Part shown: positions 19,390 to 46,481 of the stretch, piece after piece
How the letters are laid out: the number at the start of each line of letters is the position of its first letter
Numbering within the stretch: the stretch's first letter is position 1
Assembly: GCA_963799845.1 (NCBI GenBank)
Contig: CAWCYI010000004.1
Coordinates: 1,824,001-1,888,000, forward strand
DNA from: an uncultured Nitrososphaerota archaeon
Lineage (GTDB): Archaea; Thermoproteota; Nitrososphaeria; Nitrososphaerales; CADDZS01
DNA: 64,000 bases
Direction of reading: 5' to 3'
Translations under genes and position numbers: made by a program
Notes under the pieces: generated by a model
Seen by the model: the letters and a program-made list of their open reading frames with translations, nothing else
Told to the model about the DNA's origin: nothing
Databases searched by the model: none

Positions 19390-19587
19390 TTACGCTTTAC
19401 TTAGGAGCGCATTCACAACATCCGCGGGGGCTCTGTATGTCTGGTCGGGCAGGCTCTTTGATACCCACTCCTTGTCACCAGAGGGCACGTCAGACATGTT
19501 ATTGCATGCCGCAACGACCTGCTCCTTTGATGCCGGATAGGATATGTGATTCTTGATGTGTCCAAGTTCTTCTTGTAGATTGCTCAT
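19390..19587 (-). CDS. DUF2795-like small protein
   Basis: ISYPASKEQVV...LPDQTYRAPADVV pattern; GGAGAGG before the ATG. Confidence 0.65.
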   Translation of the reverse strand: MSNLQEELGHIKNHISYPASKEQVVAACNNMSDVPSGDKEWVSKSLPDQTYRAPADVVNALLSKA

Positions 19588-19627
19588 CTTTTGATTTTCC
19601 TCTCCATTGTGAAATGTATCACCATTG

Positions 19628-19653
19628 TTATAAGCCGATCTCAAGATTCTTCG
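19628..19653 (-). promoter_or_regulatory. Recurrent upstream element plus TATA box
   Basis: CGAAGAATCTT-gagatcggc-TTATAA. Confidence 0.6.
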
Positions 19654-20084
19654 GTATTACTCCCTAGCATTTGCCGGCTTCTTCCCGGGAGCTTCAGCGA
19701 ATCGAGGGCTCATTCTCGGGTTGGAAAATTCCAAACGAAAGTACCTAACAAAGTTCAAAAATCTTAATGAGTGACCCGCTGCAATCAGTACGTCATGCCT
19801 AGAATGAAGAAGTGCGATAGTTGTGGGCATGAGGAATTTCTTCATTTGTACACGACCCAGATTTGCACTGCGAAAAGATGCAGATGCAACTGCTGGAAGG
19901 AACCTAATTCGCATCGCATGACAGAATCAATCGATTTGTATTAGTGCGGAGGAAAGCACGAAGTAGCGGTTCCTAGTGAATGAGTCGTCTATCAGAAAAT
20001 TCTCGAAGTTCAGGACTTTTCAAAGGAATACATTCGTGTCTTATCCCATAACGGCTTAATATCGGATATAGCCTTGAGACACTT

Positions 20085-20414
20085 ATGAAGAAATTTATCG
20101 TGTTATACAAGTCAGAGCAACCAGCGGAAGAAATGATCAGGAACACGACCGAAGAGCAAAGGAAACAAGGAATTGACTTGTGGATGCAGTGGGCAAGCAG
20201 AGCTGGAGATACGCTTGTTGATTTGGGCACGCCCCTCGGAAATGGGCGCAGCATCGCCAAAACCGGCACTGAAAACCTGCGTGCCGGAGTGAGTGGCTAT
20301 TCAATTATGCAGGGGGAAAGCATGGAGACGATTAGAAAACTCTTGGAGGAACATCCACATTTCATGACCCCTGGTAAGGTCTCGATCGAAGTTTACGAGA
20401 CCCTACTAATGTAG
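20085..20414 (+). CDS. YciI-like (YCII-related) protein
   Basis: MKKFIVLY...WMQWA...LVDLGTPLG...SGYSIMQ...HPH...IEVYE. Confidence 0.7.
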   Translation: MKKFIVLYKSEQPAEEMIRNTTEEQRKQGIDLWMQWASRAGDTLVDLGTPLGNGRSIAKTGTENLRAGVSGYSIMQGESMETIRKLLEEHPHFMTPGKVSIEVYETLLM

Positions 20415-20510
20415 CCAAGCCCCCCGAAGGCTGACGGTATGTTTCCCCTGACTCCGCTTCGAAAGAAAGTCTGAATGCTGACTTCACTCGCAAATCGGAC
20501 ACTTCCATTA

Positions 20511-20648
20511 CTATATCTGCGAGCTTGCGGCGGGCGAATCGATCCTTCGTTCTTCGAGATCGACTACAATAATATGATTCCGTCTAGGGAACTCGTGAGC
20601 AAAGACGTGAATCAAGTTTTCAATAGCTTTCATCTTATCTTTGTCCAT
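20511..20648 (-). CDS. 45-aa microprotein, paralog of 15281-15457 (not in the ORF track)
   Basis: MDKDKMKAIENLIHVFAHEFPRRNHIIVVDLEERRIDSPAASSQI; GGTGAAT before the ATG. Confidence 0.6.
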   Translation of the reverse strand: MDKDKMKAIENLIHVFAHEFPRRNHIIVVDLEERRIDSPAASSQI

Positions 20649-20843
20649 ATTCACCTACCCTTTCTGGATCTTCGGAAATTATTTTTGAAAGCATGGCAAC
20701 CACGGATGTATTTTTTCCCAGAACTAGGACTTTTCCAATTAGAGAATCTGAACTTGTTGAATTGGCGAGCTCAATCAGGTTCGACATCGTATCGGTAAGC
20801 ATACTGCTATGGATTGAAAAACTGGGAAATACCTAGACTTGGG

Positions 20844-21323: not shown

Positions 21324-21524
21324 TCAGCTTTTCTTAGCGCCTTTTAGAGTCGCCCTAAAAGCAACATCCACCACTATGCCGGCCTGAATTTTTTCAACCG
21401 AGAATTTGTAAGTCTCGATATTCGCGTCTACTTTGCCCAAATATTGGTGAATCTGATTTCCGAATGAGACAAGCTGGGTCTTTGCATCTTCGAGAGAGAT
21501 TGATTTCTTGTCGTCTTCTTTCAT
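21324..21524 (-). CDS. Small hypothetical protein, paralog of 48223-48459
   Basis: Shared QL..(F/Y)G.QI..YL.KVDA..E.YKFSVEK...G...D..FRATL. Confidence 0.75.
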   Translation of the reverse strand: MKEDDKKSISLEDAKTQLVSFGNQIHQYLGKVDANIETYKFSVEKIQAGIVVDVAFRATLKGAKKS

Positions 21525-21583: not shown

Positions 21584-21841
21584 AATTCTCTATCCTTTTC
21601 ATAGATAGGAGTTTCATTCTCCATTTTACCTTGAAGAAAGATATACCATCCGTTCTTCTCGGGTTGTGCTGGACTATCCTTCGGGAAGGTCGGCCACAGG
21701 TCTTACCTGGTCCCGAGAGGACTTTTCTAATTCTGTCTTTAGGTTATTGATGGGTCTGGGCATGATTCGGAAGTCCCAGATCATCTTTGCCGGAAAACTA
21801 ACAGGTTAGTTACGACGGGCAAGTCTACATTAGGAGACGCG

Positions 21842-22490: not shown

Positions 22491-23426
22491 TTAGCTTTTG
22501 TTGGCATCACGTACTTTGATCTTGAGCTGGGTTCTTATTTCCAGTTTTTCATTTTCGTCTTTTTCTGATCTCACTTCCCTTGCATGGGAACCGTGGGTTT
22601 CCGCGTAAACTTTAGAAAACTGGGCGCCGAACAGGATAAACAGGTTCATTATGTATATCCACAAGAACAGGACCATGAGAGCGCCGGCGGTTCCTGCAAG
22701 AGTCGTGACTTGAAAGACGCTCAGGTATACGCCGAATAGATAGTTGAGAATCGTGAAGACGAAGGCGGTTATCGCCGCCGCTAACCACACATCTCCCCAT
22801 CTGACGAGTGTTTCAGGTAGCAATTTGAAGATGATGGCGAATAGAAGGGTTCCTAATCCCAGAGATAGAACGACCTGAAGGGATCTCAAGAACAGAGGAG
22901 CCATGCTGCCTATCAATGGAACGAGGATGAATACCATTGCGTTGAAGAGCACGGTCGAGAAGGTGGTCCAGGCCACCACAATGAGTGAAAGCCCCACAAT
23001 CAACAAGAACGGAACCGCTTTTTTTCTTACGCTCGCTAGCCTCCCTTGTTTGGTTGGTTCTACCTCCCAAATTGCATCCATAGATTTTTGTAAGACCGAA
23101 AACGCGCCGACCGCCCCGGAAATCGCGAAGGTGACGCTTATCAGAGAGCCAAAATAAGATGTTAACGGACTCGCCGCGTTCCTTAGAAGTTGAGCAAGAA
23201 GGGCCCCGACGGAGGAACCAGCAAACGAGCTTACTTGGTTAACGAGTTGTTGGAGGGCTTGTTGTTGCCCGTATACCTGTGCGAGTATCGCCACGGCAAT
23301 GAGCGCGAGAGAGGGTAGGGGCATTATCGTAAAGAACGTGAGCGCGCCCGCAGTCAGCGTGGCGTCATGTTTTTGCCACTTCGTGAAGGTAACTTTGATC
23401 AAGTCTGTGAATTCTTGCCTGTTCAA
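22491..23426 (-). CDS. YihY/virulence factor BrkB family membrane protein
   Basis: AGALTFFT..PL, IFKLLP...WGDVWLAA, GALMVLFLWIY...ILFGAQF. Confidence 0.9.
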   Translation of the reverse strand: MNRQEFTDLIKVTFTKWQKHDATLTAGALTFFTIMPLPSLALIAVAILAQVYGQQQALQQLVNQVSSFAGSSVGALLAQLLRNAASPLTSYFGSLISVTFAISGAVGAFSVLQKSMDAIWEVEPTKQGRLASVRKKAVPFLLIVGLSLIVVAWTTFSTVLFNAMVFILVPLIGSMAPLFLRSLQVVLSLGLGTLLFAIIFKLLPETLVRWGDVWLAAAITAFVFTILNYLFGVYLSVFQVTTLAGTAGALMVLFLWIYIMNLFILFGAQFSKVYAETHGSHAREVRSEKDENEKLEIRTQLKIKVRDANKS

Positions 23427-23471: not shown

Positions 23472-24128
23472 TCAGATCATCATTTCTATCGCGGTATACA
23501 CGCTGTTGATGGCCAGAGCTCTTGTCTTTGTCACGAGCTGCAAAAGCGTGGGTTTCGCATCTGCGCCCAAGGTTGCAATTCGGCGACCCTTGTAGGAGAC
23601 CGTCAGGGTAATTCCTAATTTCTTGGAAGTCTCAGCAATCGTCCTCATCATGGCAAGGGGATTGGATTTTTTCTCATTCACTTTCTTTTCTCGCGCCTCT
23701 GGATTCTTGGGAGTAAGCTCGTTGCGGAACTTCATCACCCTTTTCATGAACTGTTTATCCTCCACATCAAGGTCTAATTGTCTGCCCGCTACCTTGACTC
23801 TAAGCACCTCTAAATCTCCCGTGGAAATGAGAACCCTCCCCGATTCGAATGCAGTCGCCCTATTGTCGCGCTGTTCTTGCGACATCTTCACCGCCCCGTA
23901 ACTCGCGTTTCCGTTCTTCTTGTGTATAACATTGAAGTCGAGCTCGCCGGCGACTTCGTATAGTTTGTCGTCGATGGTGAGTCTTATGTCCTGAACGTCC
24001 ACCCGGAGGCTAGATTTTCCTCCCACGAGCTTGTCGATTATTTCGGCTATGCGATCGGGCTTCCATTTTGAAAATTCTTGTTTCAGTTCTGACTGGTTAA
24101 AGACCGTCACGACGAAGCACCCTAGCAA
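23472..24128 (-). CDS. Hypothetical protein
   Basis: 218-aa ORF, co-oriented with and just upstream of YihY. Confidence 0.65.
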   Translation of the reverse strand: MLGCFVVTVFNQSELKQEFSKWKPDRIAEIIDKLVGGKSSLRVDVQDIRLTIDDKLYEVAGELDFNVIHKKNGNASYGAVKMSQEQRDNRATAFESGRVLISTGDLEVLRVKVAGRQLDLDVEDKQFMKRVMKFRNELTPKNPEAREKKVNEKKSNPLAMMRTIAETSKKLGITLTVSYKGRRIATLGADAKPTLLQLVTKTRALAINSVYTAIEMMI

Positions 24129-24563: not shown

Positions 24564-24953
24564 TTAATTCTTCACCATTTCTAGGCATTCACCGAGTTGT
24601 TCAATTGAAAATGGTTTCAAAAGGAAAGGAAATCCTGCTTCAGCCGCTTTCTGTTTCACGAAATCATAAGCCGACACGAGAATTATTTTTGTGTTCTTTT
24701 TGTATCTAACTATGATGTTGGCTGCTTCGATACCGTTCATCTCGGGCATTCGATAATCCATGATGATGATGTCAAAAGACTGGCGATCTTTAGAAAGGGC
24801 TTTGACTATCGACGTTCCATCATTGAATAGAGACGGAGATGGATATCCTAATTTTTCGATGACTTGTGAACAGAGACCGGGCAGGTCCGGCTCATCATCG
24901 ACGACTGCAATTCTCAGATCAGCAATTCTTGGACTGTTGTTCGTTGCGACCAT
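24564..24953 (-). CDS. Stand-alone response regulator receiver
   Basis: VVDDE, MDYRMPEMNG, KPF. Confidence 0.92.
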   Translation of the reverse strand: MVATNNSPRIADLRIAVVDDEPDLPGLCSQVIEKLGYPSPSLFNDGTSIVKALSKDRQSFDIIIMDYRMPEMNGIEAANIIVRYKKNTKIILVSAYDFVKQKAAEAGFPFLLKPFSIEQLGECLEMVKN

Positions 24954-25193
24954 TATCCCAAATTTGATTGGTACAGAACTAAATTTTCATAAAAGCGAAG
25001 CGCTCTCTTGCAATTTTCGCTACTGGGGAATTCTCCATTTTAGGAGAAAAAGCTCTTCGGGTATCGAGATTCGACATCCATTCTTAATACAGACTGCACC
25101 CCGATTTTCCAAAAATCACTTAAGTGAAACATGAATGACCCAAATCATTCAACCATTAACTCTAACTGCACTCCAATATCTTCCATGCTATGA

Positions 25194-25580
25194 ATGCGAA
25201 AGACATCCCATCTATCCAAAGAAACCTCCCATGACGTTACATCTAGGCGAAGTATGCCTAATCTGCAAGGACAAGGAATCTTTTTGAGTTTCGTCATTCT
25301 TGGAACACAGGCTGGAATCATCGGAATTCTACTCCTCCTTGCCGATGGATTAGTAATTGGAATAGCTGGAAAGAAAGCTCTGGCTTCAGTTCTCCTCATA
25401 ATTGTTTGCTTGGTTCTCGCTAGTTTCATCGGGCTCGTAATTCCTTTCTTAACAGTGAGCGACGTTTGGACTCAAGTAGTTAGTATTCTGAGTTCCCAAG
25501 CATCTCGCACCGGACCAATAATCTACTCATTTCCAGTGTTCTGGATTCTCGGTTTTGGCATCGGTGTGTGGAAAGGCTAG
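25194..25580 (+). CDS. Small membrane protein (family with 37130 and 43130); true start probably later
   Basis: DGLVIGIAGKK...FPVFWILGFGIGVWKG. Confidence 0.7.
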   Translation: MRKTSHLSKETSHDVTSRRSMPNLQGQGIFLSFVILGTQAGIIGILLLLADGLVIGIAGKKALASVLLIIVCLVLASFIGLVIPFLTVSDVWTQVVSILSSQASRTGPIIYSFPVFWILGFGIGVWKG

Positions 25581-25645
25581 TTAGAATCCGCTGTATTTTA
25601 ATTGAAGTCTAATCATATCACTTTTCTGGAGATGCCAGTGAGGAT

Positions 25646-27346
25646 TTGACGAGTGCTGTCGAACGCACAGAAGTTCTGACAGATCAGAAGTTAGTTATGG
25701 ACAGGGCTCTCGCCATTTTCTCCAACGCGAAGAATGGGGTTGACATACTCGCGGAAGCGATGGCTCTCCCGGAATCAGAGCAATCTCAAGAGGCCAAGAA
25801 CGCGGCGGAAGCATACTTCGACATAAAGAAGAGGGGAGGACGCCTGAGGATACTCACTAAGATTGACGTGAAGAATGTTTCGTACAGTAAGGAGCTAATG
25901 AAAAACGTAGAACTTCGTCATCTTGACGACGTAAAGGGGAACTTTGCGATAAGCGACAGCGAGTACATTTCTTCTCCGACGGGCACAACTTTTCGCCCTA
26001 ATATCATGGTCCCCGTCATCTATAGTAATGCCAGACCTTTCATTGAGCAAAACAGAAATGCGTTCGAGAGATTCTGGTATATGGCCACGCCTGCAGAGGA
26101 ACGAATCAAAGAAATTGAGGAAGGGATTGTTCAACCCCGGATTGAAATAATAAACAACCCGGACCAGATTCTAAAGCTGCATTTCGATCTAGTTATCCAA
26201 GCCAAAGAAGAAATTCTGGTCATTTTGCCAACTGCTAACGCGTTCCATCGCGAAGAGAGAATCGGGGTAATTGAAGCTCTGAAGATCGCCGCCTCAGAAC
26301 GAGCAGTGAAGGTCAGCATAATCGCTCCAGATTCCCTCATTCAGGAGACTCTCGGATCTTTGAACAGAGAGACACAGGCACACGCCGGGAGAGAACTGAT
26401 TAACCACAGGCGTATTCTTGAAGCCACTACTCCTAACACCGTAACTGTTCTCGTGGTCGATAGAAATTCCTCACTCGTCATCGAAGAGAAGGATGACTCG
26501 CAAGCCGATTTTGGCAAAGCAATCGGCGTGGCCACCTATTCGACTAGGAATTCCATGGTGCTCGCAAACGTTCGGTTCTTTGAGAGAATGTGGGAAGAGG
26601 TTGAACTCAGGGAGAGGGAAAAGGTTCTCCTGGAAAGGGAGAAACGAAGCAGAAAAGCTGCAGAACTTTTGCAGGACATCATGGCGCACGACATCAGGAA
26701 CTACAATCAGATTTCCAAGACCAGTGCCGAAATGTTGAAGGCTGACTTGCAGAGCACACAAAGGCTATCTCTTATTGATTCGATACTGAAAGCAACAGAC
26801 GGTTCAAGCGAGCTGATCGATAGGGCTAAGAAACTGGGAAGGATAATCTCGCAGGTGGAAATAGAGCTCCATCCTGTCGATCTCAAAGATTCGCTGGAAA
26901 CATCGGTAGCCTTGATAATAAAGTCCCATCCTCAAAGGTCAATCAATCTTTCATCCTCTGTAGAATCGGGAGTACGAGTGTTCGCGGATAATCTGTTGGA
27001 GGAAGCGTTCACTAACATAATGTCTAACTCGGTCAACTACACTGAAACAGATGAAGTTCCTGTTGAAATTCAAGTGGAAGAGACCGAAGAAGAGACTCTT
27101 GAAAGAAAAAGGATGCCGTACTGGAAGATAACTTTCACTGATCATGGAGAGGGCATACCGGACAAGATGAAGGACAAAATATTCACGCGTTATCTGAACA
27201 CATCAACTGGAGCGGGCCTTGGACTCTCAATAGTCTATGCGCTGGTGGTGGAGAGGTATTCGGGAAAAGTGAAAATCACAGATAGGGTGAAAGGAGACTA
27301 CGCAAAGGGGACAAAGGTGGAAGTATGGTTACCAAAAGCATCTTGA
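25646..27346 (+). CDS. Cytoplasmic sensor histidine kinase with tandem TrmB/PLD-like N-terminal domains
   Basis: H-box AHDIRNYNQ, N-box NIMSNSVNY, G1 DHGEGIP, G2 GAGLGL; ELRHLDDVKGNFAISD sensor motif; no TM helix. Confidence 0.92.
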   Translation: MTSAVERTEVLTDQKLVMDRALAIFSNAKNGVDILAEAMALPESEQSQEAKNAAEAYFDIKKRGGRLRILTKIDVKNVSYSKELMKNVELRHLDDVKGNFAISDSEYISSPTGTTFRPNIMVPVIYSNARPFIEQNRNAFERFWYMATPAEERIKEIEEGIVQPRIEIINNPDQILKLHFDLVIQAKEEILVILPTANAFHREERIGVIEALKIAASERAVKVSIIAPDSLIQETLGSLNRETQAHAGRELINHRRILEATTPNTVTVLVVDRNSSLVIEEKDDSQADFGKAIGVATYSTRNSMVLANVRFFERMWEEVELREREKVLLEREKRSRKAAELLQDIMAHDIRNYNQISKTSAEMLKADLQSTQRLSLIDSILKATDGSSELIDRAKKLGRIISQVEIELHPVDLKDSLETSVALIIKSHPQRSINLSSSVESGVRVFADNLLEEAFTNIMSNSVNYTETDEVPVEIQVEETEEETLERKRMPYWKITFTDHGEGIPDKMKDKIFTRYLNTSTGAGLGLSIVYALVVERYSGKVKITDRVKGDYAKGTKVEVWLPKAS

Positions 27347-27840
27347 TCGTTCGACAGGTCTATCCGCCCAGTTTCGCCACTTTGATAAGCTCGACCACAG
27401 ATTATTCAGGAAAATCGAATCGGATCGGACAGAACACTCATTTTTCAAACGATCAAGGCGAGACTGGAAGGCATAGCAGCAAGAGCATCGCGATAGTGGA
27501 TGATGAGGAAGACTTGTGCTCGTTGTTTTCAATGTTGATCAAGAATTTAGGATATCACGCGGCGTGTGTTGCCCATGACGGAGATGAAATTGTTCAACTT
27601 GTGTTGGAGGATAGCATCCACCCGGATCTGATATTGATGGACTACCGCATGCCTACGATGAATGGCATGCAGGCAGCCGAGAAGATTCTGCACGTCAGGC
27701 CGGAGACAAAGATAATCATCGCCACTGCCGACGACTCGGTGAGGCGAGATGCGATTTCTGAGGGGTTTTTCTTCATACAGAAACCTTTCTCCATATCGGC
27801 ACTCGCCAAGAAAATAGAAGAGGCATTAGGACAGCGATAG
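27325..27840 (+). CDS. Response regulator receiver (start uncertain)
   Basis: IVDDE, MDYRMPTMNG, TA, KPF; directly follows the kinase. Confidence 0.88.
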   Translation: MVTKSILIVRQVYPPSFATLISSTTDYSGKSNRIGQNTHFSNDQGETGRHSSKSIAIVDDEEDLCSLFSMLIKNLGYHAACVAHDGDEIVQLVLEDSIHPDLILMDYRMPTMNGMQAAEKILHVRPETKIIIATADDSVRRDAISEGFFFIQKPFSISALAKKIEEALGQR

Positions 27841-28994: not shown

Positions 28995-29105
28995 GTCTGT
29001 CGGATCGAGGGCACTGATGATTTGGGAAATTTGTAGCCCGTTAGATGAAAATCGATGGAATGAATCCTAGACTACATATTATGGATTTTCCATCTTAAGA
29101 TAATT

Positions 29106-30141
29106 TCTCTTATCAAACAATTATTTCGCTCCATAGTCAACAAGGTTAGGCTGGGGGACTATTGGAGGAGCATCTGGAAGAAGCATGGCTATGGGTCAAG
29201 AAAGCTTTCAGAGGAAAAGGTGGTGTGGGTGGTCAAGGCTAGAGAGAGCGGCCTTGCAGCCAGGGATATCGCATCAACCCAGAACATCACCGTGAGAAGA
29301 GTGGAGCAGCTTTATGCCCAATACAGGGAATCCGGAGAGATACCATCTCTCAAGAAGGCAGGCAGAAAAAGAATCGAGATCCCAATTGAGGAGAGGAATG
29401 CGATCATCGAAGCTTCAAGGAAGTTTGGCGTCGGAGCCTGCTACCTCGTTTCAATCCTCAAGAGAGATTACGGCATCGATGAAACAAACCACATGCGAGT
29501 CTATAGCGTATTGAAGGAGGAAGGATTGTTGTACAATACAGCAAGGACGCGCTTCAAGCGCAAGTGGATCAGATATGAAAGGGAGCATTCCAATTCGTTG
29601 TGGCACGTCGATTGGCACGAGATGAAATCGTCAGTATACAGGGGCAAGTGGCTGGTAATCTACGAGGATGACGCATCGAGGTACATCCTGGGTTATGGCG
29701 TGTTTGACTCTCCGTCGTCTGAAAATGCAGTGAGCGTCCTGAAGGAAGCGATCAGGGAACATGGCAGACCAGCATCAATCCTCTCAGACAGAGGTACATC
29801 CTTCTATGCGGTCGAAGCTGAAACAAAAACGAAAGGTCTCACTGAATTCGAGCTCTATCTGATGAGGAATCACATCAAACATATTCTTTCAAGAGTGAGA
29901 CATCCCCAAACCAATGGAAAATTGGAGAAGCTCTTTGATACGGTTGAAAGAGGACTCGCGAAGGGATTCTCTCCGATTGAGGAGTGCGTACGCTGGTACA
30001 ACTGCATCAAGCCCCACGGAGCCCTTGATCTGGAGAGAGCTGAAACTCCACTGGAAGCCTACTACAGGAAGATGGAAATAAAAGAGGAACTCATAGATCC
30101 TTCAATCATGTGGGAGAGCGAAATGATTCTTTGATAGAACA
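29106..30141 (+). mobile_element. IS481-family insertion sequence
   Basis: Imperfect ~26-bp terminal IRs (tctcttatcaaacaattatttcgctc versus the reverse complement of the right end, tgttctatcaaagaatcatttcgctc); flanked by the 15-bp direct repeat CATCTTAAGATAATT (29091-29105 and 30142-30156). Confidence 0.88.
29220..30134 (+). CDS. IS481-family DDE transposase (true start probably ATG 29191 via a 1-bp indel)
   Basis: RYEREHSNSLWHVDW, DDASR, ILSDRG, HPQTNGKLEK, YN..KPH. Confidence 0.9.
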   Translation: MVWVVKARESGLAARDIASTQNITVRRVEQLYAQYRESGEIPSLKKAGRKRIEIPIEERNAIIEASRKFGVGACYLVSILKRDYGIDETNHMRVYSVLKEEGLLYNTARTRFKRKWIRYEREHSNSLWHVDWHEMKSSVYRGKWLVIYEDDASRYILGYGVFDSPSSENAVSVLKEAIREHGRPASILSDRGTSFYAVEAETKTKGLTEFELYLMRNHIKHILSRVRHPQTNGKLEKLFDTVERGLAKGFSPIEECVRWYNCIKPHGALDLERAETPLEAYYRKMEIKEELIDPSIMWESEMIL

Positions 30142-36072: not shown

Positions 36073-36258
36073 ATGGGATTAGTCAATCTCGCAATCCTGG
36101 TCTTGATTTTATTCATCGTTTTCGCAGTCTTAGGATTCTGAGGCATAGCGGCAGCTCTTGGAAGCATTCTGTACCTTCTCATCATCGTTATCGTGGTCAT
36201 ATTCGTCGCAAGTCTTGTAGCTGGAAGATCTTGGTACGGATTAGCCCTAAGACAATAA
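36073..36258 (+). pseudogene. DUF1328 (UPF0391/YtjA-like) membrane microprotein with in-frame TGA at 36139
   Basis: MGLVNLAILVLILFIVFAVLGF*GIAAALGSILYLLIIVIVVIFVASLVAGR. Confidence 0.7.
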
Positions 36259-36619: not shown

Positions 36620-36886
36620 TTAATTTTCGTCAGCTAAATATTTTGAAATTAATCCTTTCATGATTTCGTAATCAATTTCGTCAGCAGGAATGATTCTGTA
36701 TGCTCTTTCTTCACTTCGAATAGTCTCTTTTCGAATGATTAATCCTTTGGTTTCTAAACCTTCGCATATTTTGGAAATAATCCCTGAACTTAGACCAGTT
36801 GAACTGACAAGATAAGATTGGTAGACACCTTCTCTTATTTCTGATGTTATTTTCTCGACAATGTCCCTGTCGGGATTCCCTCCCAT
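36620..36886 (-). CDS. Small winged-helix protein
   Basis: GVYQSYLVSSTGLSSGIISKICEGLETKGLIIRK. Confidence 0.7.
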   Translation of the reverse strand: MGGNPDRDIVEKITSEIREGVYQSYLVSSTGLSSGIISKICEGLETKGLIIRKETIRSEERAYRIIPADEIDYEIMKGLISKYLADEN

Positions 36887-37129
36887 TTAGATAGGCCACA
36901 TCCCTTCTCACGCAAGAAAGTGATTTGGCTAGACTCCAATTAAAATATAGCGAATCGAGCTTTGAGATCCTCGGTCTTTCTCAGTCGAGGCGAAAATAGA
37001 CACTGTCGCTTCGGTTTAACTCACTACTTTCGCTTGTTTTTCGAGGTGTAGGCAAGCAAAGCAATGTCTGTGACTGGTCGGCGCATTATTCCGAGGAAGA
37101 GCGCCTGCTCCATACATGAAGGATTCTAG

Positions 37130-37429
37130 CTACCCTTTCCACAGTCCGATGCCGAACCCGATAATCCAGAAGATCGGAAACGCGTAGAATACAGCCCCGA
37201 TGTGGGACGCCTGAGAGAGGAAGATATCCACGATGCGGCTCCAGACATCCGACAGACTGATGAAGGGAATTGAAAGACCAATGGCACCGGCGAGAACAAG
37301 CCCCACAACTATGAGAATCGCGGAACTTATCCCCTTCTTTGCGGCGAGCCAAAGACCAGTCCATCCGCGAATAAAAGTACTATCGATACGACTCCGGCTA
37401 TCGTCGTTGGAGGCGCGATCAACTTTCAA
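37130..37429 (-). CDS. Small membrane protein (family with 25194 and 43130), frameshift near 37350
   Basis: LLFADGLVFG in one frame and LAAKKG...FPIFWIIGFGIGLWKG in the next. Confidence 0.65.
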   Translation of the reverse strand: MKVDRASNDDSRSRIDSTFIRGWTGLWLAAKKGISSAILIVVGLVLAGAIGLSIPFISLSDVWSRIVDIFLSQASHIGAVFYAFPIFWIIGFGIGLWKG

Positions 37430-37436
37430 ATCACCT

Positions 37437-37745
37437 TTATGTTTGTACTAGTGAAGGTTCAGGGGGCGCGTTTTGTTTTAGACTTTCATTTCGCACTTTC
37501 GCAGATGGCATTAGCTCTTTGATCTCTTCGTATGCATTCAAGAATTTGAGTCCTTTTTCCGTTATTAAGTAAAGTCGAGCTCCTTCATCATATCTTACCA
37601 AGTCTCTGTCCTGGAGCAGGCCGAGATATTCAGACAGTTGGGCGTACGATAAGTAAGCGCTGTACATTATGCGAGTCTTGGTCGTACCTGATCCGATTGA
37701 CCGCAACATGCTGTCGATAATTTCTGTGCTGCTTCTGTACTTCAT
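37437..37745 (-). CDS. HTH_45-type winged-helix regulator (paralog 2)
   Basis: MKYRSSTEIIDSML...TKTRIMYSAYLSY.QL.EYL...ITEKG. Confidence 0.9.
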   Translation of the reverse strand: MKYRSSTEIIDSMLRSIGSGTTKTRIMYSAYLSYAQLSEYLGLLQDRDLVRYDEGARLYLITEKGLKFLNAYEEIKELMPSAKVRNESLKQNAPPEPSLVQT

Positions 37746-38176
37746 GATTTTGGTAAATGCGGGACATGGTGTGGAATATTAACAGTTTGGAACAATGTTT
37801 GTTTCGAGTCTAGTTGATATTCACATATTCTCCATTTTTGGATAATACACAGAGCCCGTCGATAAATTAAGTCAGCATAGGCTTTGGATTCCCTGGAGAA
37901 GCGTCCTCCTCGCTTTTGAAAACGGATCGGACACCTGTTATAGATCCGGAAAAGACGGATGTGGTCTATCCTTTGGATACAATCTTCGATCACCTTACTT
38001 TTGCTGAGCGAATTTATCGCTGAATGAATTCAAAAGATCTCCCTGACTCCAGTGCCTCTTGATTTCTTTTATTGCTTTGAGTAGCTGATGATGGAATCGG
38101 ATCTTCCGAAGTGTTTGCAGTATTCGGATCTACGGTCAAATGGGCCTTGTGGTTACAATCTCAATGCCATTTCATT

Positions 38177-38443
38177 TCAAGTATGAGGCTCGCGATTGGA
38201 GTCGTTTCCGGAAATAAATGGGTATACACCTGCCAGAACTTCGGCTTCGGTGGCGCGGAGGTAGACTCTTTCTCCATCAAAAGTTGCCACTGACTCCTTG
38301 GGAATCCGAAGTAATCGCATACCTCTGACTGCTACAAGAAGAGGGCCGTCGCCTTCTTTGGTATGGCCAACTTCCTTGTTATCACAGCTTTTGACTTCTT
38401 TTCCCGTTATTTCGGCGTCCTGCCAGGTTGGAACAGTTATCAT
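38177..38443 (-). CDS. Stand-alone PRC-barrel-like protein
   Basis: GKEVKSCDNKEVG...RIPKESVATFDGERVYL; similar to the N-domain of 34097. Confidence 0.65.
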   Translation of the reverse strand: MITVPTWQDAEITGKEVKSCDNKEVGHTKEGDGPLLVAVRGMRLLRIPKESVATFDGERVYLRATEAEVLAGVYPFISGNDSNREPHT

Positions 38444-38674: not shown

Positions 38675-39625
38675 TTGGCGCAAGAATTCGATAAATTATT
38701 AGTCGCAATCGATGACTCAGATATTGCCGATCAAGTATTGCATCTTGCGATTGGCATTGCTCTTCCCGATTCATCCAGGCTCGATGTACTCCACGTCGTG
38801 AATCCCTCTCCTTCTACGGCAGTCGAGATTCCATCTCCATTGCTTGGGTCGTCTGTTCCTCCGGTTATTCCCCTCCCGGCCGACTCTGCTCAAAGCACCC
38901 CCGAGGATTCGGATTCAAATGCCAAGTTAAAGGGTGAGGAACTTCTCGCCGAAAGTAAAGCTGAGATTCAAAAAGCTTCACAGAATTTTAGTAGCGATAA
39001 GAAACTCCAGTGCGATACTATTTTACTCAGATCCTCCGACGTTGCTAGAGAGATAATCAGGACATCAAAAGAGGGAGCTTACGACCTAGTGATAGTTGGC
39101 AGTCGAGGCCTCGGCATTCTCAAGAGCTTCTTTCTCGGAAGTGTCTCAAAAAAGGTCGCCAAGGAAGCTAAGTGTTCGGTCCTCGTTGTAAAGAAAGCGT
39201 CCGGCACCCTCAATAGGTTTCTCCTTGGATACAACGGTTCCGAAGAAGGAAAGAAAGCTCTCAACATTGGTGCAAGTCTTGGTAAGAATTTCAATGCGGA
39301 AATTGATCCGATATGTGTGGTCAGTATTCCTCCTATCATGCCTACTATTGAACAATCAACCATAAACAATCTTGAAGGAGAAATGAAATCTTATGCGGCT
39401 GATGCTGTTTCATCCCTCAAGAATCAAGGTGTCCCTACGTCTAAGGGAATAGTGATCGATTCACCGAGCATATCAGGAGCGATAGAGGAGTATTCTACCA
39501 AGAACTCCTACGATCTTGTTATCGTTGGAAACCACCCGAAAGGGAAACTGGAAACCCTTCTGCTAGGGAGTGTGTCTTTAGACGTCGTCGAACAATCAAA
39601 AACCAATGTCCTCGTGGTCAAATGA
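38675..39625 (+). CDS. Tandem-domain universal stress protein
   Basis: Two USP domains, DLVIVGSRG...LGSVS and DLVIVGN...LLGSVS. Confidence 0.92.
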   Translation: MAQEFDKLLVAIDDSDIADQVLHLAIGIALPDSSRLDVLHVVNPSPSTAVEIPSPLLGSSVPPVIPLPADSAQSTPEDSDSNAKLKGEELLAESKAEIQKASQNFSSDKKLQCDTILLRSSDVAREIIRTSKEGAYDLVIVGSRGLGILKSFFLGSVSKKVAKEAKCSVLVVKKASGTLNRFLLGYNGSEEGKKALNIGASLGKNFNAEIDPICVVSIPPIMPTIEQSTINNLEGEMKSYAADAVSSLKNQGVPTSKGIVIDSPSISGAIEEYSTKNSYDLVIVGNHPKGKLETLLLGSVSLDVVEQSKTNVLVVK

Positions 39626-40140: not shown

Positions 40141-40329
40141 TTATTCTTCTCGCACCTCGCGTGACAGATCTTTTTGTACAGTTCTCCACTCTATTTCCTC
40201 CGCACGTTCTGGCGAATCACCACGGGCCTCCTCACTTCGCTCTATGTGCTCTGCCATCCTGTCTGCCTTTTCGGTGTGTTCATGGCCTCCTACGCCTCTT
40301 CGAATTTCGCTATGTTTCTTGCTCGGCAT
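40141..40329 (-). CDS. ChaB-like stress microprotein, paralog of 33749
   Basis: RMAEHIERSEEARGDSPERAEEIEWRTV. Confidence 0.7.
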   Translation of the reverse strand: MPSKKHSEIRRGVGGHEHTEKADRMAEHIERSEEARGDSPERAEEIEWRTVQKDLSREVREE

Positions 40330-40906: not shown

Positions 40907-41071
40907 TTAGCTGATACCGTCTGAGACTTGCGATTCCCGTTCTCGTCTAGGCCCAGAACACTCATGGGAACTTAGATCAGCTTCGTTTGCAAAAGAACGC
41001 TTGCAAACGTTGCATTCGTAGGTCTTCCCTGGAGGGGGCGGAGTGATCACGCTCAAGAGATTCTCATCCAA
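40907..41071 (-). CDS. Zinc-finger microprotein (not in the ORF track)
   Basis: YECNVCKRSFANEADLSSHEC. Confidence 0.6.
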   Translation of the reverse strand: MDENLLSVITPPPPGKTYECNVCKRSFANEADLSSHECSGPRRERESQVSDGIS

Positions 41072-41113: not shown

Positions 41114-41335
41114 CTATCCTTCTTTTCTTGTGCTTTTGAATTGTTTTACTTTCCCAAAATCTTTGACAGATATTCCAAATTTCTTTGCTGCCCTGATTAT
41201 TCTCCTTCTTGCCACCTCGGGATGACAGAATTTTGATTCGACCTGGTCAAACCTCGCCATTGCATTGCGTACGTGAACGGCATCGTTTATTGGAAGTTTG
41301 CGATCTCTCGGGCAAGCATATTCAATGATCTTCAA
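41114..41335 (-). CDS. DUF6582-like protein (start uncertain)
   Basis: RKLPINDAVHVRNAMARFDQV...ARRRIIRAAKKFGI. Confidence 0.7.
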   Translation of the reverse strand: MKIIEYACPRDRKLPINDAVHVRNAMARFDQVESKFCHPEVARRRIIRAAKKFGISVKDFGKVKQFKSTRKEG

Positions 41336-41617: not shown

Positions 41618-42106
41618 TTATGAATGGTGCAATAATTTCGTGGGATTATGTTCTAGAAATTTTTTGGACGAAAGCTCAAGAATATCGGTAGTCTGCCTAT
41701 TTTTTCTTGAGACTGCCAATTGAAAGTCTAGGATCTCGGACTTGGCATTCGAAGAGCCCGACCCGTTAAAGGAATGAGTTCCATTACTATGGTGTTCTCC
41801 AAAATATTTCAGCATCCTCGCTATCAAAGCGAGTCTGGATTGAAGCTCTTCAATACCCGCAGGGGTGAGAAACCAGTTGTACGACGTTGGTTCATCCTGT
41901 CTTTCCCTCACACGTACGACTAACTGATATCTTTCAAATCTATGCAACATTGGAACCAAAGTTCCGAAACTCAATCCCTTGTTCGTGGTTTGGATGAACT
42001 TTTTTCTAATTTGATAACCGGTCACCGGCTGATTAGCATTTATAATTTGGAGAACAATTGTTTCTCCCAGACTTGGCAGTACTTGTAGACGAGTCTCAGC
42101 TGACAA
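41618..42106 (-). CDS. PadR-family transcriptional regulator
   Basis: VLQII...TGYQI...SFGTLVPMLHRFE..QLV...LTPAG. Confidence 0.75.
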   Translation of the reverse strand: MSAETRLQVLPSLGETIVLQIINANQPVTGYQIRKKFIQTTNKGLSFGTLVPMLHRFERYQLVVRVRERQDEPTSYNWFLTPAGIEELQSRLALIARMLKYFGEHHSNGTHSFNGSGSSNAKSEILDFQLAVSRKNRQTTDILELSSKKFLEHNPTKLLHHS

Positions 42107-43129: not shown

Positions 43130-43423
43130 TTGGATTTCGGATCTCTGACTTTCATCGTACTCGTAATAATGCTGTTCTTCGACGGATTGATATTCGGAGT
43201 TGCAGCGGCCAAAGGAGTCACGTCGATTATCCTGATCGTCGTGGGACTCGTAATTGCATCATTTATTGGCCTCAGCATTCCATTCCTGAACTCCAACGCT
43301 GGAAATTTCCTAGGGAGTATTGAAAACCTGTTTATTTCGGCAGTCAATAGGTATGGACCAACATTTTTCGCCATGCCTATACTCTGGATAGTCGGGTTCT
43401 TGGTTGGGGTCTTTGCAATTTAG
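43130..43423 (+). CDS. Small membrane protein (family with 25194 and 37130)
   Basis: DGLIFGVAAAKG...IGLSIPF...PILWIVGFLVG. Confidence 0.75.
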   Translation: MDFGSLTFIVLVIMLFFDGLIFGVAAAKGVTSIILIVVGLVIASFIGLSIPFLNSNAGNFLGSIENLFISAVNRYGPTFFAMPILWIVGFLVGVFAI

Positions 43424-43939
43424 ACCCTCGAACCCTAACTAATCTGACATCTATTCATGAAAAATCCCGATTAATTTACTTGGATTCCAGGAGCGTTTAG
43501 CCAATCAAGGAGTAGTTTTGGTGGTAAAATGGTATGATGTCAAGCTTCGGTAAGTCGGGCGAATGTGTCGCTCCTGCAAAGGTGGCTGACAGGGATAATG
43601 AAGAGATAGCTGAAAATGTTTGGTACACATGACTGGGATGTCGACTCGGGAAAGCCACTTGGTGAAAGTGGCGTTTTGATTCACTATAATTGCAGAAGGT
43701 GCAATGCTGAGGGGTACTCTATTGTGACTAGTAAGGGGACGAGTACTTCTAAATTGATAGAGACCAGGATTGTCAACTTCATTTGAAATGAATGAAGTTA
43801 ACAATTAGATGTGCGGATCGATATTGGCATAGCTGGAGAGTTCTACCGATCCAATTGCGCCACAGAGGGCGTGAAAAATCGAAAAGATCTTCAACAAGCA
43901 CATAATTCAAGCGGCTGAATCGAAAACAGTCACCTAAAT

Positions 43940-44473
43940 TCAGACACTTTCAATTGCTTCAAGCAACTGATGCTTGGAAATGGGCTTCGCTAGAATTAAG
44001 TTTAAGAATTTTTTTGAATCCCGAGGAACATCATAAGCAGTTATCATAATTATCTTGATATCAGAATTGATTTCTTTGATTTTATGAGAGGCCTCGAGCC
44101 CGTCCATGCGAGGCATCTTCTGGTCCATCAATATCACGTCTGGGTAGTTTCCTGGACTGGACTTTACAGCATTGACAGCTTCGACCCCGTCTTGGAAAAC
44201 GCGATCTACGGTAAATCCTGCCGATCTAAGAATAATGGAATAAAGATCCGCAATCTTTTTTTCATCATCGACTACCATTATCTTATAATCGAGAGATTTT
44301 CCGTTTTCTGGCCCTGTCTTGGATTTCGGATTATTGTTTCGAAGTCCTTTAGAGCGTTGCCCAAATGCGCGCTTTGACTCTGGAAAGCCCCAATCAGATC
44401 GATTTGGAAGATTTTCCTCGAAAAAGCTTGGCACGAGGACCTGCTTTGCACTTTTTGATTTTTTCGGAGTCAA
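43940..44473 (-). CDS. Response regulator receiver with N-terminal extension
   Basis: VVDDE, MDQKMPRMDG, TA, KP; overlaps the stop of the upstream kinase. Confidence 0.88.
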   Translation of the reverse strand: MTPKKSKSAKQVLVPSFFEENLPNRSDWGFPESKRAFGQRSKGLRNNNPKSKTGPENGKSLDYKIMVVDDEKKIADLYSIILRSAGFTVDRVFQDGVEAVNAVKSSPGNYPDVILMDQKMPRMDGLEASHKIKEINSDIKIIMITAYDVPRDSKKFLNLILAKPISKHQLLEAIESV

Positions 44474-46171
44474 TTTTCCACTCGTTCAGGCTTAAGTGAA
44501 ATTGGAAGCCAAATTCTAATCGTACTCCCACGTGGTTTTCGATCCTCGACCACTATCCTGCCATCATATCTATTTACAACGAGCGCGTGTATTATCGACA
44601 TGCCTAGACCGCTTCCCCTCGCTCCCGCAACAAACCTATCAAAGATCTTATCCTTCAATTCATAGGGGATACCGATTCCATTATCGGAGATCGAGATCTT
44701 GAAGTAAGGCTCCTCTCTCTCGATCTCGATCCAAAGTGGAACCGTATTTGACTCGGTATATTTTGCCGAATTTGAAAAGACATTGGTGAAGACTTCATCT
44801 ATGAGCTCATCCACTTCGATGTAAGTCTTCTTCTTTCTTTCTTTAGGCGAAATCTCGGTCTCTTCGCGGATCAGCTTGTCAGGAAACGCTTGTCGGACGA
44901 GCGTTAGCGATCTCTGTAGTGATTGAATAAGATCAATCGGGCCGAGTTCCGGCTTTTCTTCCGACAGAATCTTACCTCAGCTTCTTGCCCCTCTCTACCA
45001 AGGAAGATGCCCCGTCGATCGCATCAAGAAGGTCTTTTACAAGCCTTGCGCCCTCCACGTCTTCCGAAGCTTCGAGCCGCTCAAGCAAAAGCTCAGCACT
45101 CAATCTGGAGACCTGATTATAGTTTTTGATATCATGGGTCAGTATATCCTGAAGAAGTTGCGCCTGTTTTCTGCTTCTCTCTTCCATCTCCCTAAGCTCA
45201 CTTTCCTTCCAGAGGGCATCGAACACAGAGGCAATCCCAACGATCGTGTGTCTATTAGTCGTATAGATGTTAGAAAACACAGCGTTCTGCGTCGAGTCCG
45301 CTTCGGTATTCGAGTACTGGGTGATGAACATTTTCTTCATATCGTAAATCGTGATGCTTACGTTCATAGGCTCGATCTTTCTCCATTCAGCATTAGGTAG
45401 AATTTTCATTGCGGAGATGTCATTGCCAGGCGAAAGAACTCTAACTTGGAAGCCTCTTTCCTGCTGAAGTTGCGAAAGTCGTTCGAACATCTTGGAGTTT
45501 CTTGTGATCGTCTTGGGAGAGGCGACGATTAGGAGAGCTGATTCTCTGCATTCTTCCGTCATCTCCGTTCCAAGCTTGAAGACTTCGGTCATATCTTCGA
45601 TCAATCGCGTCTCCTCAATCTCTCGGCCTTCCTCTAACTGGCGAATCCGCGACTCGCCAGGAATAGACATCCGCCACATCATTTGGAATATCTGACTCGC
45701 TTGTGAGACTACGTCACTCTTATTGCTCCAGATTATTTCTCGTGGGAGGTCTGAGCCGGTGGCAGTTTGTTCCTCCATTACAGCGAGCTCGATTGCCACG
45801 TACTCGTCTCTCGACAAGGCGAAACTGATCTTGTTTTTATCAAGGTGCCTCACTTCTACACCGATTTCTGAAAGGGACTTGTAGTATGCCAGGTTTTCTC
45901 TTTGAAGGTCTGTGATTAATTGAAACTTGAATTTTGGATTTAGAGCGAATAGAGCCTTCGAAAGATCAATTGCGGCTTCTTGATCTCTGGGGACGCGACT
46001 ATCTGAGGAAGTTTTCAGATAAGAAGCCGTCGACCGCTCTATGAACGCCATTGAGAGCGGGGCAACTTCAGCTCCACTTACGAGCTTGGTCTCCTGAACT
46101 GTGGAAGAGGACGAAGAATCGACAACAGAATCAGAGCCTCCTCCAGTCTGGTGGTTGACCGTAGAAGACAA
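44470..46171 (-). CDS. Cytoplasmic histidine kinase (TrmB/PLD-like sensor), frameshift near 44977
   Basis: H-box THDIKNYNQ in ORF 44972-46171; the shifted frame reads GKILSEEKPELGPIDL into the HATPase (NVFSNSAKY, DNGIGIP, GSGLGM). Confidence 0.88.
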
Positions 46172-46200
46172 CTAGTACTGGATTCTTGTTTTAGGCTTTC

Positions 46201-46229
46201 TATATATGCACAGCGGGAGGATTGTTCCA
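46201..46229 (-). promoter_or_regulatory. Recurrent upstream element plus TATA box
   Basis: TGGAACAATCCT-cccgctgtgc-ATATATA. Confidence 0.55.
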
Positions 46230-46280
46230 TAACAGAATTAGTTTCCCAAAAAAATTGGGAATCGCTGGCGTTCCTGGGAT

Positions 46281-46481
46281 TTACATGCTATCGTCTCTTT
46301 CTAGGCTGGGACTCTGATCTTTATTGTTATTGCCCAGCGGGCTAGGTTGTGGCTTGACTTCCCCGAAATTTTCGGATCTTTCAGTTGGTCGTCCCTTAGT
46401 GTCTAGATTGTCTATCTCGTCTTCCGTCTGCATTTCATCAGCGCTGATTTTCTTTTTATTAGTCTGGACTTTTTTTGTCAT
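46281..46481 (-). CDS. Small hydrophilic/disordered protein
   Basis: 66 aa rich in K/E/D/S/N with no hydrophobic core. Confidence 0.5.
   Translation of the reverse strand: MTKKVQTNKKKISADEMQTEDEIDNLDTKGRPTERSENFGEVKPQPSPLGNNNKDQSPSLERDDSM

Follow-up and report, generated by a model that had tools for sequence, protein, structure and literature searches.

Does an archaeon have a general stress response of the bacterial kind, and if so, how is it wired without sigma factors? This question is raised by a 64,000-nucleotide (nt) stretch from an uncultured Nitrososphaerota archaeon (hereafter the window; positions 1824001-1888000 of contig C4 in the host genome, G000:C4:1824001-1888000). Between window positions 19390 and 46481, an initial sequence-only reading had noticed genes of bacterial stress families among kinases, receivers and winged helix-turn-helix (wHTH) genes, and had proposed a stress or dormancy regulon switched on through these regulators. 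In the following, we argue that the locus is probably something else, namely a lineage-specific signalling island that was built by duplication and carries accessory stress-family genes, and not a conserved regulon.

The host genome comprises 4.60 Mb in nine contigs (C numbers; contig GC content 0.44-0.48), with an estimated completeness of 86.7% and a contamination of 4.87%; the window lies inside a 2.1-Mb contig and has archaeal genes on either side. All 211 open reading frames (ORFs) of at least 40 residues in 18800-47300 were searched for Pfam matches at E<=0.01; at E<=1, the same was done for 64 called genes between 9.5 and 63.5 kb, 43 of which were also compared with NCBIfam. Paralogues were sought with phmmer, using the window proteins against all ORFs of the genome. 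Two comparison sets were used, in which G numbers denote genomes and L numbers fetched loci or contigs. The first consists of 30 relatives, six from the same genus, six more from the same family and 18 from other families of the order, all fragmented except for the complete ones. For the second, an alignment of seven proteins of the HTH_45 family led to 564 relatives in species-representative genomes, of which the best 78 loci (1.09 Mb) were analysed, their content being scored by phmmer with the window proteins as queries. The closest public relatives of the window HTH_45 proteins are found in records titled Nitrososphaerales, Thaumarchaeota, Nitrosotalea, Nitrosopumilaceae or Gagatemarchaeum, and two of the 78 loci carry the record title 'bacterium'.

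The signalling island spans about 52 kb (approximately 11.8-64 kb of the window), with 19390-46481 as its variable, small-gene-rich half. A scan of the whole genome for Response_reg yielded ten matches, eight of which lie in the window between 11.9 and 60.7 kb. Likewise, the window holds six of the seven kinase loci found by phmmer with window queries, the sole outsider being C6:826623, as well as five of the 12 HTH_45 ORFs of the genome (phmmer). Four of the window kinases start at 25646, 49175, 58903 and 62697, and two further copies are in pieces (13817-14952 and 44470-46171). The island also holds a GvpD/KaiC-like ATPase, and a TFB gene begins at its right edge. Its signalling genes and their neighbours are:

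11822..12232, minus strand: stand-alone receiver at the left edge of the island (Response_reg, 69.5 bits; paralogue of 24564 at 3e-52 and of 60318 at 2e-47)
13817..14952, minus strand: histidine-kinase paralogue in three ORF pieces, which match kinase 25646 at 3e-78, 5e-56 and 1e-16
16065..16391, minus strand: HTH_45 (Sso10a-like winged helix) paralogue (HTH_45, 73.9 bits)
24564-24953, minus strand: receiver (Pfam Response_reg)
25254-25580, plus strand: small membrane protein with paralogues at 37130-37429 and 43130-43423
25646-27346, plus strand: kinase (Pfam HATPase_c)
27325-27840, plus strand: receiver with an N-terminal extension (Pfam Response_reg)
36620-36886, minus strand: small wHTH protein, part of the 36620..37745 group
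37130-37429, minus strand: small membrane protein, paralogue of 25254
37437-37745, minus strand: HTH_45 (Pfam 76 bits, cut-off 25.5; Sso10a model NF053610 of NCBIfam 75.2 bits, cut-off 60)
41618-42106, minus strand: PadR-type regulator (PadR, 32.2 bits)
43940-44473, minus strand: receiver (Pfam Response_reg)
44470-46171, minus strand: kinase split by a 1-nt indel near 44978 (Pfam HATPase_c)
47396-47767, minus strand: GtrA-like protein (Pfam), in a block syntenic with same-genus contig L005
48223-48444, minus strand: small protein, paralogue of the 21324 family
48646-48984, plus strand: HTH_45 (Pfam), in the same block
49175-50989, minus strand: kinase (Pfam HATPase_c)
53361-53735, minus strand: WbqC fragment (Pfam)
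53970-54338, minus strand: receiver (Pfam)
54538-55950, plus strand: GvpD/KaiC-like ATPase (GvpD P-loop family, 45.6 bits, cut-off 24)
55970-56242, minus strand: HTH_45b (Pfam)
56457-57050, minus strand: PIG-L deacetylase (Pfam)
57255-57608, plus strand: receiver (Pfam)
57902-58282, plus strand: receiver (Pfam)
58323-58919, plus strand: 198-residue ORF with no family assigned, overlapping the start of kinase 58903
58903-60258, plus strand: HisKA kinase (Pfam)
60318-60710, minus strand: receiver (Pfam)
61527-61850, plus strand: HTH_45 (Pfam)
62080-62394, minus strand: conserved protein p62080, with homologues in 20 of the 78 HTH_45 loci
62697-63503, minus strand: HisKA kinase (Pfam)
63778..64000, plus strand: 5' part of the TFB gene, which continues past the window end (329-residue frame C4:1887718-1888704)

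Genes for ArsR/MarR-type wHTH proteins were also matched by Pfam in 18800-47300. HATPase_c is present in kinases 25646, 44470, 49175, 58903 and 62697, the last two of which are the only ones with a Pfam match to HisKA; kinase 25646 aligns to NCBIfam kinase models from about residue 304-377 onward. In the group of receiver 53970, which was the one aligned column by column among the eight, residues D8, D9, D52, T80 and K104 are invariant in 16 aligned orthologues. The kinase relative outside the window (C6:824051-826623) is located about 2 kb from another TFB gene.

Duplication has left its mark throughout this island. Receivers 11822, 24564 and 60318 are mutual paralogues (1e-47 to 3e-52 by phmmer), as are kinases 13817, 25646, 44470 and 49175; the small membrane protein exists in three copies (25254, 37130 and 43130), and the small proteins form the paralogue pairs 20844/40527, 21324/48223, 28707/42348 and 33749/40141 (all by phmmer). 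On the DNA level, repeats of 300-380 nt with 70-88% identity connect paralogous genes, the region of 13817..14952 forms inverted repeats of 81-88% identity with 25765-26855, and a 39-nt element is shared by 36917-36955 and 25586-25624, the latter upstream of kinase 25646. The variable half is also unusual in its gene structure: its 43 called genes have a median length of 92 residues and a coding fraction of 0.63, and 70% are shorter than 120 residues, which places it beyond every one of 58 random 27-kb segments of the same genome on all four measures (at most 40 genes, a median of at least 106 residues, a coding fraction of at least 0.64 and at most 58% under 120 residues).

The backbone of this island has counterparts in relatives. 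The same-genus contig L005 (12.7 kb) repeats the order of 43940-50989, that is receiver, kinase, small ORF, GtrA-like gene, small protein, HTH_45 and kinase, with an adenylate cyclase-TPR gene in place of the DUF6582, PadR and small ORFs of the window. The genes of 53361-57050 (WbqC, receiver, GvpD/KaiC-like ATPase, HTH_45b and PIG-L) recur in slightly different order in L006/L015 and L008, where same-genus contig L006 adds a TFB beside HTH_45 and L008 adds an HTH_45 of the 37437 type. In the 78 HTH_45 loci, a TFB was found in 39, WbqC in 27, a histidine kinase in 26, a receiver and PIG-L in 25 each, p62080 in 20 and the GvpD-like ATPase in 19; at least one of receiver, kinase or ATPase is present in 33. 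Orthologues of receiver 53970 at E<=1e-40 were found in 20 ORFs of these loci, the ATPase being present in the same locus for 15 of them. The ATPase and the orthologous stand-alone receiver occur together in at least 15 loci, either divergently or in one operon with kinases.

Where at least 1300 nt of sequence follow the HTH_45 gene (72 loci), the most frequent of these partners, TFB, is its immediate same-strand 3' neighbour in 35 cases, including that of Nitrosotalea devanaterra (L047); in the window, HTH_45 61527 and the TFB are separated by p62080 and a kinase. The window-edge TFB, whose two TFIIB repeats lie just past the window end, belongs to a genome with 17 TFIIB-repeat matches, corresponding to about nine TFB genes. 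In a tree of 47 rows (one of 48 was dropped for having fewer than 150 residues, and the tree carries a long-branch warning), it shares a clade (96/89) with 38 TFBs that adjoin HTH_45 genes in other Nitrososphaerota, and the remaining TFBs of the host lie outside this clade. A pairing of HTH_45 and TFB with ATPase, receiver and kinase neighbours was not found in the literature, as far as titles, abstracts and passages outside subscription journals are concerned. The wiring proposed in the sequence-only reading, from a kinase through a DHp protein or receiver to an HTH_45 activator and/or an alternative TFB, has comparative backing, in that the components are conserved neighbours across Nitrososphaerales and the aligned receiver group shows canonical residues. 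Its 'DHp protein', on the other hand, is probably the N-terminal piece of a kinase, since the indel at 44978 splits this gene.

Into this backbone are interspersed the genes that gave rise to the regulon proposal, which we list together with the scores of their family assignments:

9521-9988, minus strand: ferritin/Dps-like protein, outside the island proper (Pfam Ferritin, 83.8 bits; NCBIfam DpsA/bacterioferritin matches weak and below cut-offs), one of two ferritin genes of the genome
19390-19644, minus strand: DUF2795-like (21.2 bits, cut-off 25, E 2.6e-4), with a paralogue at C6:435043
22491-23426, minus strand: BrkB/YihY (Pfam 121.8 bits, cut-off 33.7; below the cut-off of NCBIfam TIGR00765, 56.5 vs 73.15), single copy in the genome by phmmer
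23472-24128, minus strand: 218-residue protein with no family assigned, preceding the YihY gene on the same strand
33749-33895, plus strand: hydrophilic 48-residue protein, probably one of the supposed 'ChaB-like' pair
34097-34945, plus strand: DUF892 (Pfam 171.4 bits, cut-off 23.7), the only one in the genome
35604-35780, plus strand: CsbD-like (24.6 bits, cut-off 40), the weakest of five CsbD matches in the genome
38177-38443, minus strand: DUF2171 as the only Pfam match, at E 0.013
38675-39625, plus strand: tandem Usp (Pfam 163.6 bits, above cut-off)
40141-40329, minus strand: probably the other member of the 'ChaB-like' pair
41114-41335, minus strand: DUF6582 (Pfam 45.8 bits, cut-off 27.3)

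The family calls of the sequence-only reading fared unevenly. DUF892, DUF6582, the tandem USP, YihY and the further ferritin-like gene at 9521 were confirmed by hidden Markov models, as were the kinases (25646 and 44470), the receivers (24564, 27325 and 43940) and the wHTH genes, including HTH_45 37437, all of which score above their Pfam cut-offs. The USP protein shows three matched stretches; in our reading it is a tandem protein, the match to its first domain being broken in two. Residues 118-277 of the DUF892 protein match the YciF structures 4eru (E 7e-29) and 2gs4 (E 1e-26) over nearly their whole chains; unlike enterobacterial YciF/YciE, it is a fusion that carries an additional DUF2171-like domain of about 110 residues (about residues 8-100) N-terminal to the YciF-like, ferritin-like domain. 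This N-terminal domain belongs to no firm family; it is related to 38177-38443, which resembles the N-terminal 121 residues of the DUF892 protein (BLASTP E 2e-4), and the N-terminal ~100 residues (34097-34465) have 11 matching ORFs in G026, a genome of the same order. In BLASTP, the domain shows no likeness to a genuine PRC protein of the host (E 12).

Two calls stand between confirmation and failure. The CsbD-like protein stays below its cut-off, but is clearly related to the bona fide CsbD proteins of the genome (phmmer 2e-18 to that at C4:771151, 5e-7 and 8e-7 to others) and is probably a real, divergent CsbD relative. The DUF2795-like call likewise falls short of its cut-off, but is probably real. 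Three families were not confirmed. DUF1328 has no match in the whole genome at E<=1 (32 candidates scored), and neither has ChaB; the probable 'ChaB-like' proteins 33749 and 40141 are mutual paralogues (2e-5) without a Pfam (E<=1) or NCBIfam match, and the Atlas neighbours of 33749 are clusters of 'hypothetical protein'. The PRC-barrel-like call is at best weak: the E 0.013 match of 38177 is to DUF2171, which we take to belong to the PRC-barrel clan, while none of the four PRC-barrel (PF05239) genes of the genome is found in the window.

If these genes formed a regulon with the surrounding regulators, they would be expected to travel with them, yet they are not co-conserved with the signalling genes, and it is for this reason that we find the stress-regulon half of the sequence-only reading unsupported. 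Among the 30 relatives, the DUF892 domain and, at E<=1e-8, YihY were not found at all; DUF6582 was found in one, the DUF2795-like gene in four, none of them of the same family, CsbD in eight (seven of 12 same-family genomes) and an orthologue of the tandem USP in seven, all among the 12 same-family genomes. The CsbD and USP counts include genome G001, without which each stands at six of 11 same-family genomes. As these genomes are fragmented and those of the same genus and family are 58-96% complete, all such absences, and likewise the lack of co-localization, mean 'not found in those searched'. The seven USP contigs show neither a receiver nor an HTH_45 match at E<=1e-10, and four USP neighbourhoods are otherwise unlike the window, save for two genes: in L012, a gene of the 48223 family lies 3 kb from the USP gene, and in L013, a weak HTH_45-like ORF lies 6 kb from it. 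The syntenic same-genus contigs L005 and L006 lack the stress genes. The same picture emerges from the 78 HTH_45 loci, of which five contain any stress family (CsbD in two, and USP, DUF6582 and the 33749 family in one each), and none contains DUF892, YihY, the DUF2795-like gene, the ferritin or 38177. Within the host genome, the four other CsbD genes, each of the four PRC genes and the majority of the USP genes are located at other sites, often beside Lrp/AsnC-type regulators. The stress-family genes have independent, patchy phyletic patterns, which point to separate events, and lateral acquisition is the apparent origin of no fewer than two of them, the YciF-like fusion and YihY.

Nor do the upstream regions tie the stress genes together, as they share no common 8-10-mer. 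Across the 66 called genes whose upstream regions were compared, no word stood out convincingly; the top 8-10-mers were present in three to five regions, at a nominal P of about 1e-6 among some 8000 words. Two palindromes were followed further, neither of which is found upstream of the stress genes. The first, ATTCTCC-N6-GGAGAAT, was derived from a 12-mer discussed below and has four sites at no more than one mismatch in the genome, two of them in the window. In same-family relatives it is found at 15 sites, compared with three for the reversed control, none of them on contigs with a receiver or HTH_45 gene, and in other families at 13 sites compared with 14. As a conserved operator it was rejected, for no site with up to three mismatches lies upstream of 75 HTH_45 orthologues. 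The second, GAACA-N-TGTTC, has ten exact copies in the genome, compared with one for the reversed control, and akin words that include the palindrome or one half-site of it, such as TAGAACAA and AACAATGTTC, lie upstream of 12-21 of the 75 HTH_45 orthologues. Because of this recurrence we regard it as a candidate autoregulatory operator. In the window, sites with one mismatch are found at 37790, 45 nt upstream of HTH_45 37437, and at 57088 and 57100, in the intergenic region between the PIG-L and receiver genes.

Several observations weigh against our reading and for an archaeal regulon dedicated to general stress or desiccation, which a kinase of the island would activate through a receiver, HTH_45 and/or an alternative TFB. 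A segment of 22 kb unites several confirmed stress families with kinases, receivers and wHTH genes. The window, 1.4% of the genome, holds four of the 22 members of a-priori stress families, where about 0.3 would be expected (CsbD one of five, DUF892 one of one, Usp one of about ten, ferritin one of two, PRC none of four, DUF1328 and ChaB none in the genome at all); the enrichment itself is genuine in this genome, and its Poisson probability is about 3e-4 for one fixed window, but this figure does not survive correction for many windows and for the post-hoc choice of families. CsbD adjoins HTH_45 in L008, G005:C58, L037 and L063, that is on two contigs of the same-genus genome G005 and in two of the 78 loci; in L008, the two genes, of which HTH_45 is of the 37437 type, are convergent and 74 nt apart. 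Judging from this recurrent adjacency, some regulatory tie is possible. The 12-mer AAAATGGAGAAT has four exact copies in the genome, three of them on the minus strand of the window (21616-21627, 25030-25041 and 37827-37838), 77-92 nt upstream of the minus-strand genes for 21324, receiver 24564 and HTH_45 37437; they are not a duplication remnant, since their flanks are not conserved, and their placement hints at local co-regulation. Furthermore, HTH_45 is linked with one particular TFB paralogue throughout the order, and TFB switching between growth modes is described for ammonia oxidizers (PMC12448741). On the technical side, the kinase count comes from phmmer with window queries and not from a genome-wide HATPase_c scan, the genes were called with our own crude hexamer-based caller, many small ORFs are unverified, and the relatives are incomplete as described above; beyond domain content, the mechanism outlined below is one that we infer.

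Nonetheless, we consider such a regulon unlikely. Besides the missing co-conservation in the 30 relatives and 78 loci, the syntenic contigs without stress genes, the lack of a common upstream word and the three families that were not confirmed, further CsbD, PRC and USP copies of the same genome lie in at least four other loci beside Lrp-type regulators. If the model were true, archaea would have a defined general stress response without sigma factors; for this gene set, the evidence presented here does not support it, and apart from the CsbD–HTH_45 adjacency, the tie from the wiring to a stress regulon is unsupported. An archaeal CsbD/YciF regulon was not found in titles and abstracts of the literature either, subscription journals lying outside this coverage.

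The comparison with bacterial systems leads to a similar view. The SigB regulon of Bacillus, the RpoS regulon of enterobacteria and the EcfG/PhyR regulon of alphaproteobacteria have CsbD, YciE/YciF and the YihY-type yfkJIH operon among their members. The neighbourhood described here resembles them in bringing together YciF-like DUF892, CsbD-like, USP, Dps/ferritin and YihY genes, but differs in that this archaeon has no sigma factor, the genes share no promoter word and they are not co-conserved. Moreover, the bacterial regulons are dispersed sets defined by co-expression.

Could the whole region, stress and signalling genes in one block, instead be a horizontally acquired genomic island or an integrated mobile element? 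Its GC content drops from 0.50-0.54 (1-8 kb of the window) to 0.40-0.47 (12-64 kb), compared with the contig average of 0.44-0.48, its genes are very short and its coding density is low, and DUF892 and YihY were not found in the 30 relatives; in 300 genomes sampled from the phylum, DUF892 yielded only three marginal matches of 21-23 bits. In addition, the region harbors an insertion sequence (IS) element:

29105..30141, plus strand: IS element with an rve transposase at 29220-30134 (52.9 bits)

The transposase has 20 further matches in the genome (best E about 1e-205 by phmmer), and in short-read contigs the element is covered about eight to ten times as deeply as its flanks, with loose ends at 29102-29106 and 30141-30142. 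The Pfam scans, however, found no integrase-family gene in the window besides this transposase, and there is no tRNA gene in it. The backbone of kinases, receivers, HTH_45, ATPase and TFB has same-order orthologues in same-genus contigs and across Nitrososphaerales, and the phyletic patterns of the stress genes differ from one another. Acquisition of the region as a single block is therefore quite improbable in our view. The IS element is flanked by the direct repeat ATCTTAAGATAAT (29085-29104 with 30142-30174) and interrupts an element of about 45 nt, a second copy of which lies between the DUF892 and CsbD-like genes (35370-35417) and a half-copy in the divergent intergenic region of receiver 53970 and the ATPase (54466-54490). 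Neither this IS element nor the presence of eight of the ten receivers in the window had featured in the sequence-only reading. Rfam matches were not found in the window at gathering thresholds.

A more trivial explanation would be an artefact, that is a mis-assembly or mis-binning of bacterial DNA combined with the over-reading of random small ORFs, as might be suspected from the contamination estimate, from the sub-threshold and failed family calls and from 1-nt indels between the window and short-read contigs of the same study (at 41511, 43612 and 44978). A search for sequencing runs that contain the stretch listed three soil-metagenome DNA runs of one study and no RNA run. The contigs of these three runs cover 20 kb of the window, mostly at >=99% identity, and bridge gene junctions, e.g. 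at 35380-36538 and 36802-38266. The window lies well within its 2.1-Mb contig between archaeal genes, the scores of DUF892, USP, BrkB and DUF6582 are far above their cut-offs, and the domain to which DUF892 is fused recurs in 11 copies in a genome of the same order; hence, we regard an artefact of this kind as very improbable. The indels do matter for individual genes, and some apparent pseudogenes may be assembly indels. Without base 44978, which is missing in the short-read contig, kinase 44470 has one frame of 566 residues, and its orthologue in L005 is one gene of 586 residues; the kinase in pieces at 13817..14952 is either a broken gene or likewise a result of assembly indels. The indel at 43612 falls where the small ORFs 43534-43632 and 43616-43786 overlap, so these may be one gene, and elsewhere in the genome, one phosphoglycerate kinase is split as well.

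The lineage-specific island that we favour would have arisen from a vertically inherited, partly duplicated backbone of histidine kinases, stand-alone receivers, Sso10a-like HTH_45 proteins and small membrane proteins, through the duplication of modules of a cassette conserved across Nitrososphaerales. Its anchor would be formed by WbqC, receiver, GvpD/KaiC-like ATPase, HTH_45b and PIG-L, together with an HTH_45 gene followed by a dedicated TFB paralogue. The accessory genes, i.e. the YciF-like fusion, the divergent CsbD, the tandem USP, DUF6582, the DUF2795-like gene and YihY, would have been individually acquired or retained, as cargo in a region that tolerates insertions and has an active IS and indel-split genes among them. 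Functionally, the kinases would phosphorylate the receivers, which keep the canonical Asp/Thr/Lys set, and the receivers might then act by protein contact on the KaiC-like ATPase, the HTH_45 proteins and/or the linked TFB. Such contacts could redirect transcription, possibly including that of neighbouring stress genes.

A bolder and more tentative proposal, which we consider possible yet rather doubtful, is that the cassette on the right side of the island constitutes an undescribed thaumarchaeal switch, in which a two-component pathway, from a histidine kinase to an orthologous stand-alone receiver, and the GvpD/KaiC-like ATPase would control an Sso10a-like HTH_45 and a co-transcribed, dedicated TFB and thereby steer RNA polymerase to another set of genes; the module would have been duplicated several times here and have gathered stress cargo like CsbD beside it. 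It would be a functional counterpart of the bacterial partner-switching control of stress sigma factors. Elements of such a switch have parallels in other archaea. Haloarchaeal TFB/TBP networks are an example of alternative TFB usage, and similarly, the host has about nine TFB genes, one of them in an orthologous group tied to the signalling cassette. GvpD and GvpE regulate haloarchaeal gas vesicles; like GvpD, the island ATPase matches the GvpD P-loop family and adjoins small DNA-binding proteins, but no gas-vesicle genes were seen in the window, and its putative partner would be an Sso10a-like wHTH protein or a receiver instead of GvpE.

The wiring idea also matches what has been published on archaeal signalling. 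Galperin et al. (2018; PMC5847659) describe about 75% of the response regulators in Thaumarchaeota as REC-only and note that receiver genes are often located near HTH genes, and they propose that signals pass by contact between proteins. The island, with its stand-alone receivers beside HTH genes, fits this picture. The partners named there are ArsR/HTH_20, and most REC-only genes are described as lacking conserved neighbourhoods; here, by contrast, the partner is an Sso10a-like HTH_45, accompanied by a TFB paralogue and a GvpD/KaiC-like ATPase, and the neighbourhood recurs in many loci. The terms 'TFB' and 'GvpD' do not occur in the main text of that article. Likewise, the idea matches the evidence for TFB switching in biofilms of ammonia oxidizers (PMC12448741). 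The host itself may have a different lifestyle: a family search found no archaeal AmoA match in its genome, but the controls of this search matched nowhere either, so that a non-ammonia-oxidizing host is only a suggestion. In genome size, GC content and the lack of a detected amoA, it resembles the large-genome, non-ammonia-oxidizing soil Thaumarchaeota that, in PMC10640624, are described as having expanded by lateral acquisition and duplication.

Some further features of the island and the genome deserve mention. One of them is a small protein without a family assignment:

21324..21524, minus strand: small protein with five paralogues in the genome and a second window copy at 48223-48444

Its family has no Pfam or NCBIfam match and no usable Atlas match, and a homologue adjoins an HTH_45 gene in the same-genus contig L005/L014. 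Two small minus-strand ORFs show matches to zinc-finger models of the C2H2 type (32554-32772 and 40907-41071; zf-C2H2 31.6 bits, zf-met 24.9 bits). Other clusters of small genes are found at C6:550001-570000 (L001), C4:755001-774000 (L002), C8:62001-76000 (L003) and C4:526001-542000 (L004). They hold bona fide CsbD and PRC genes beside Lrp/AsnC-type regulators, along with KaiC, fasciclin, Band 7, ice-binding-like and adenylate cyclase-TPR genes, a DUF5670 micro-membrane protein and further IS copies.

Taken together, the locus illustrates how almost the entire two-component gene set of a large-genome soil thaumarchaeon is concentrated and duplicated in one plastic island. Stress-type genes of lateral origin have also gathered there, among them a YciF-like fusion that is almost unique in the sampled phylum. 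The conserved HTH_45–TFB/ATPase–receiver–kinase cassette is a more interesting lead than the regulon: the HTH_45–TFB pair, together with the GvpD-like ATPase, receiver and histidine kinase, offers an entry to the targets of stand-alone receivers and to the control of TFB paralogues. As Nitrosotalea devanaterra has the same arrangement, this could be tested there, if it is in culture.

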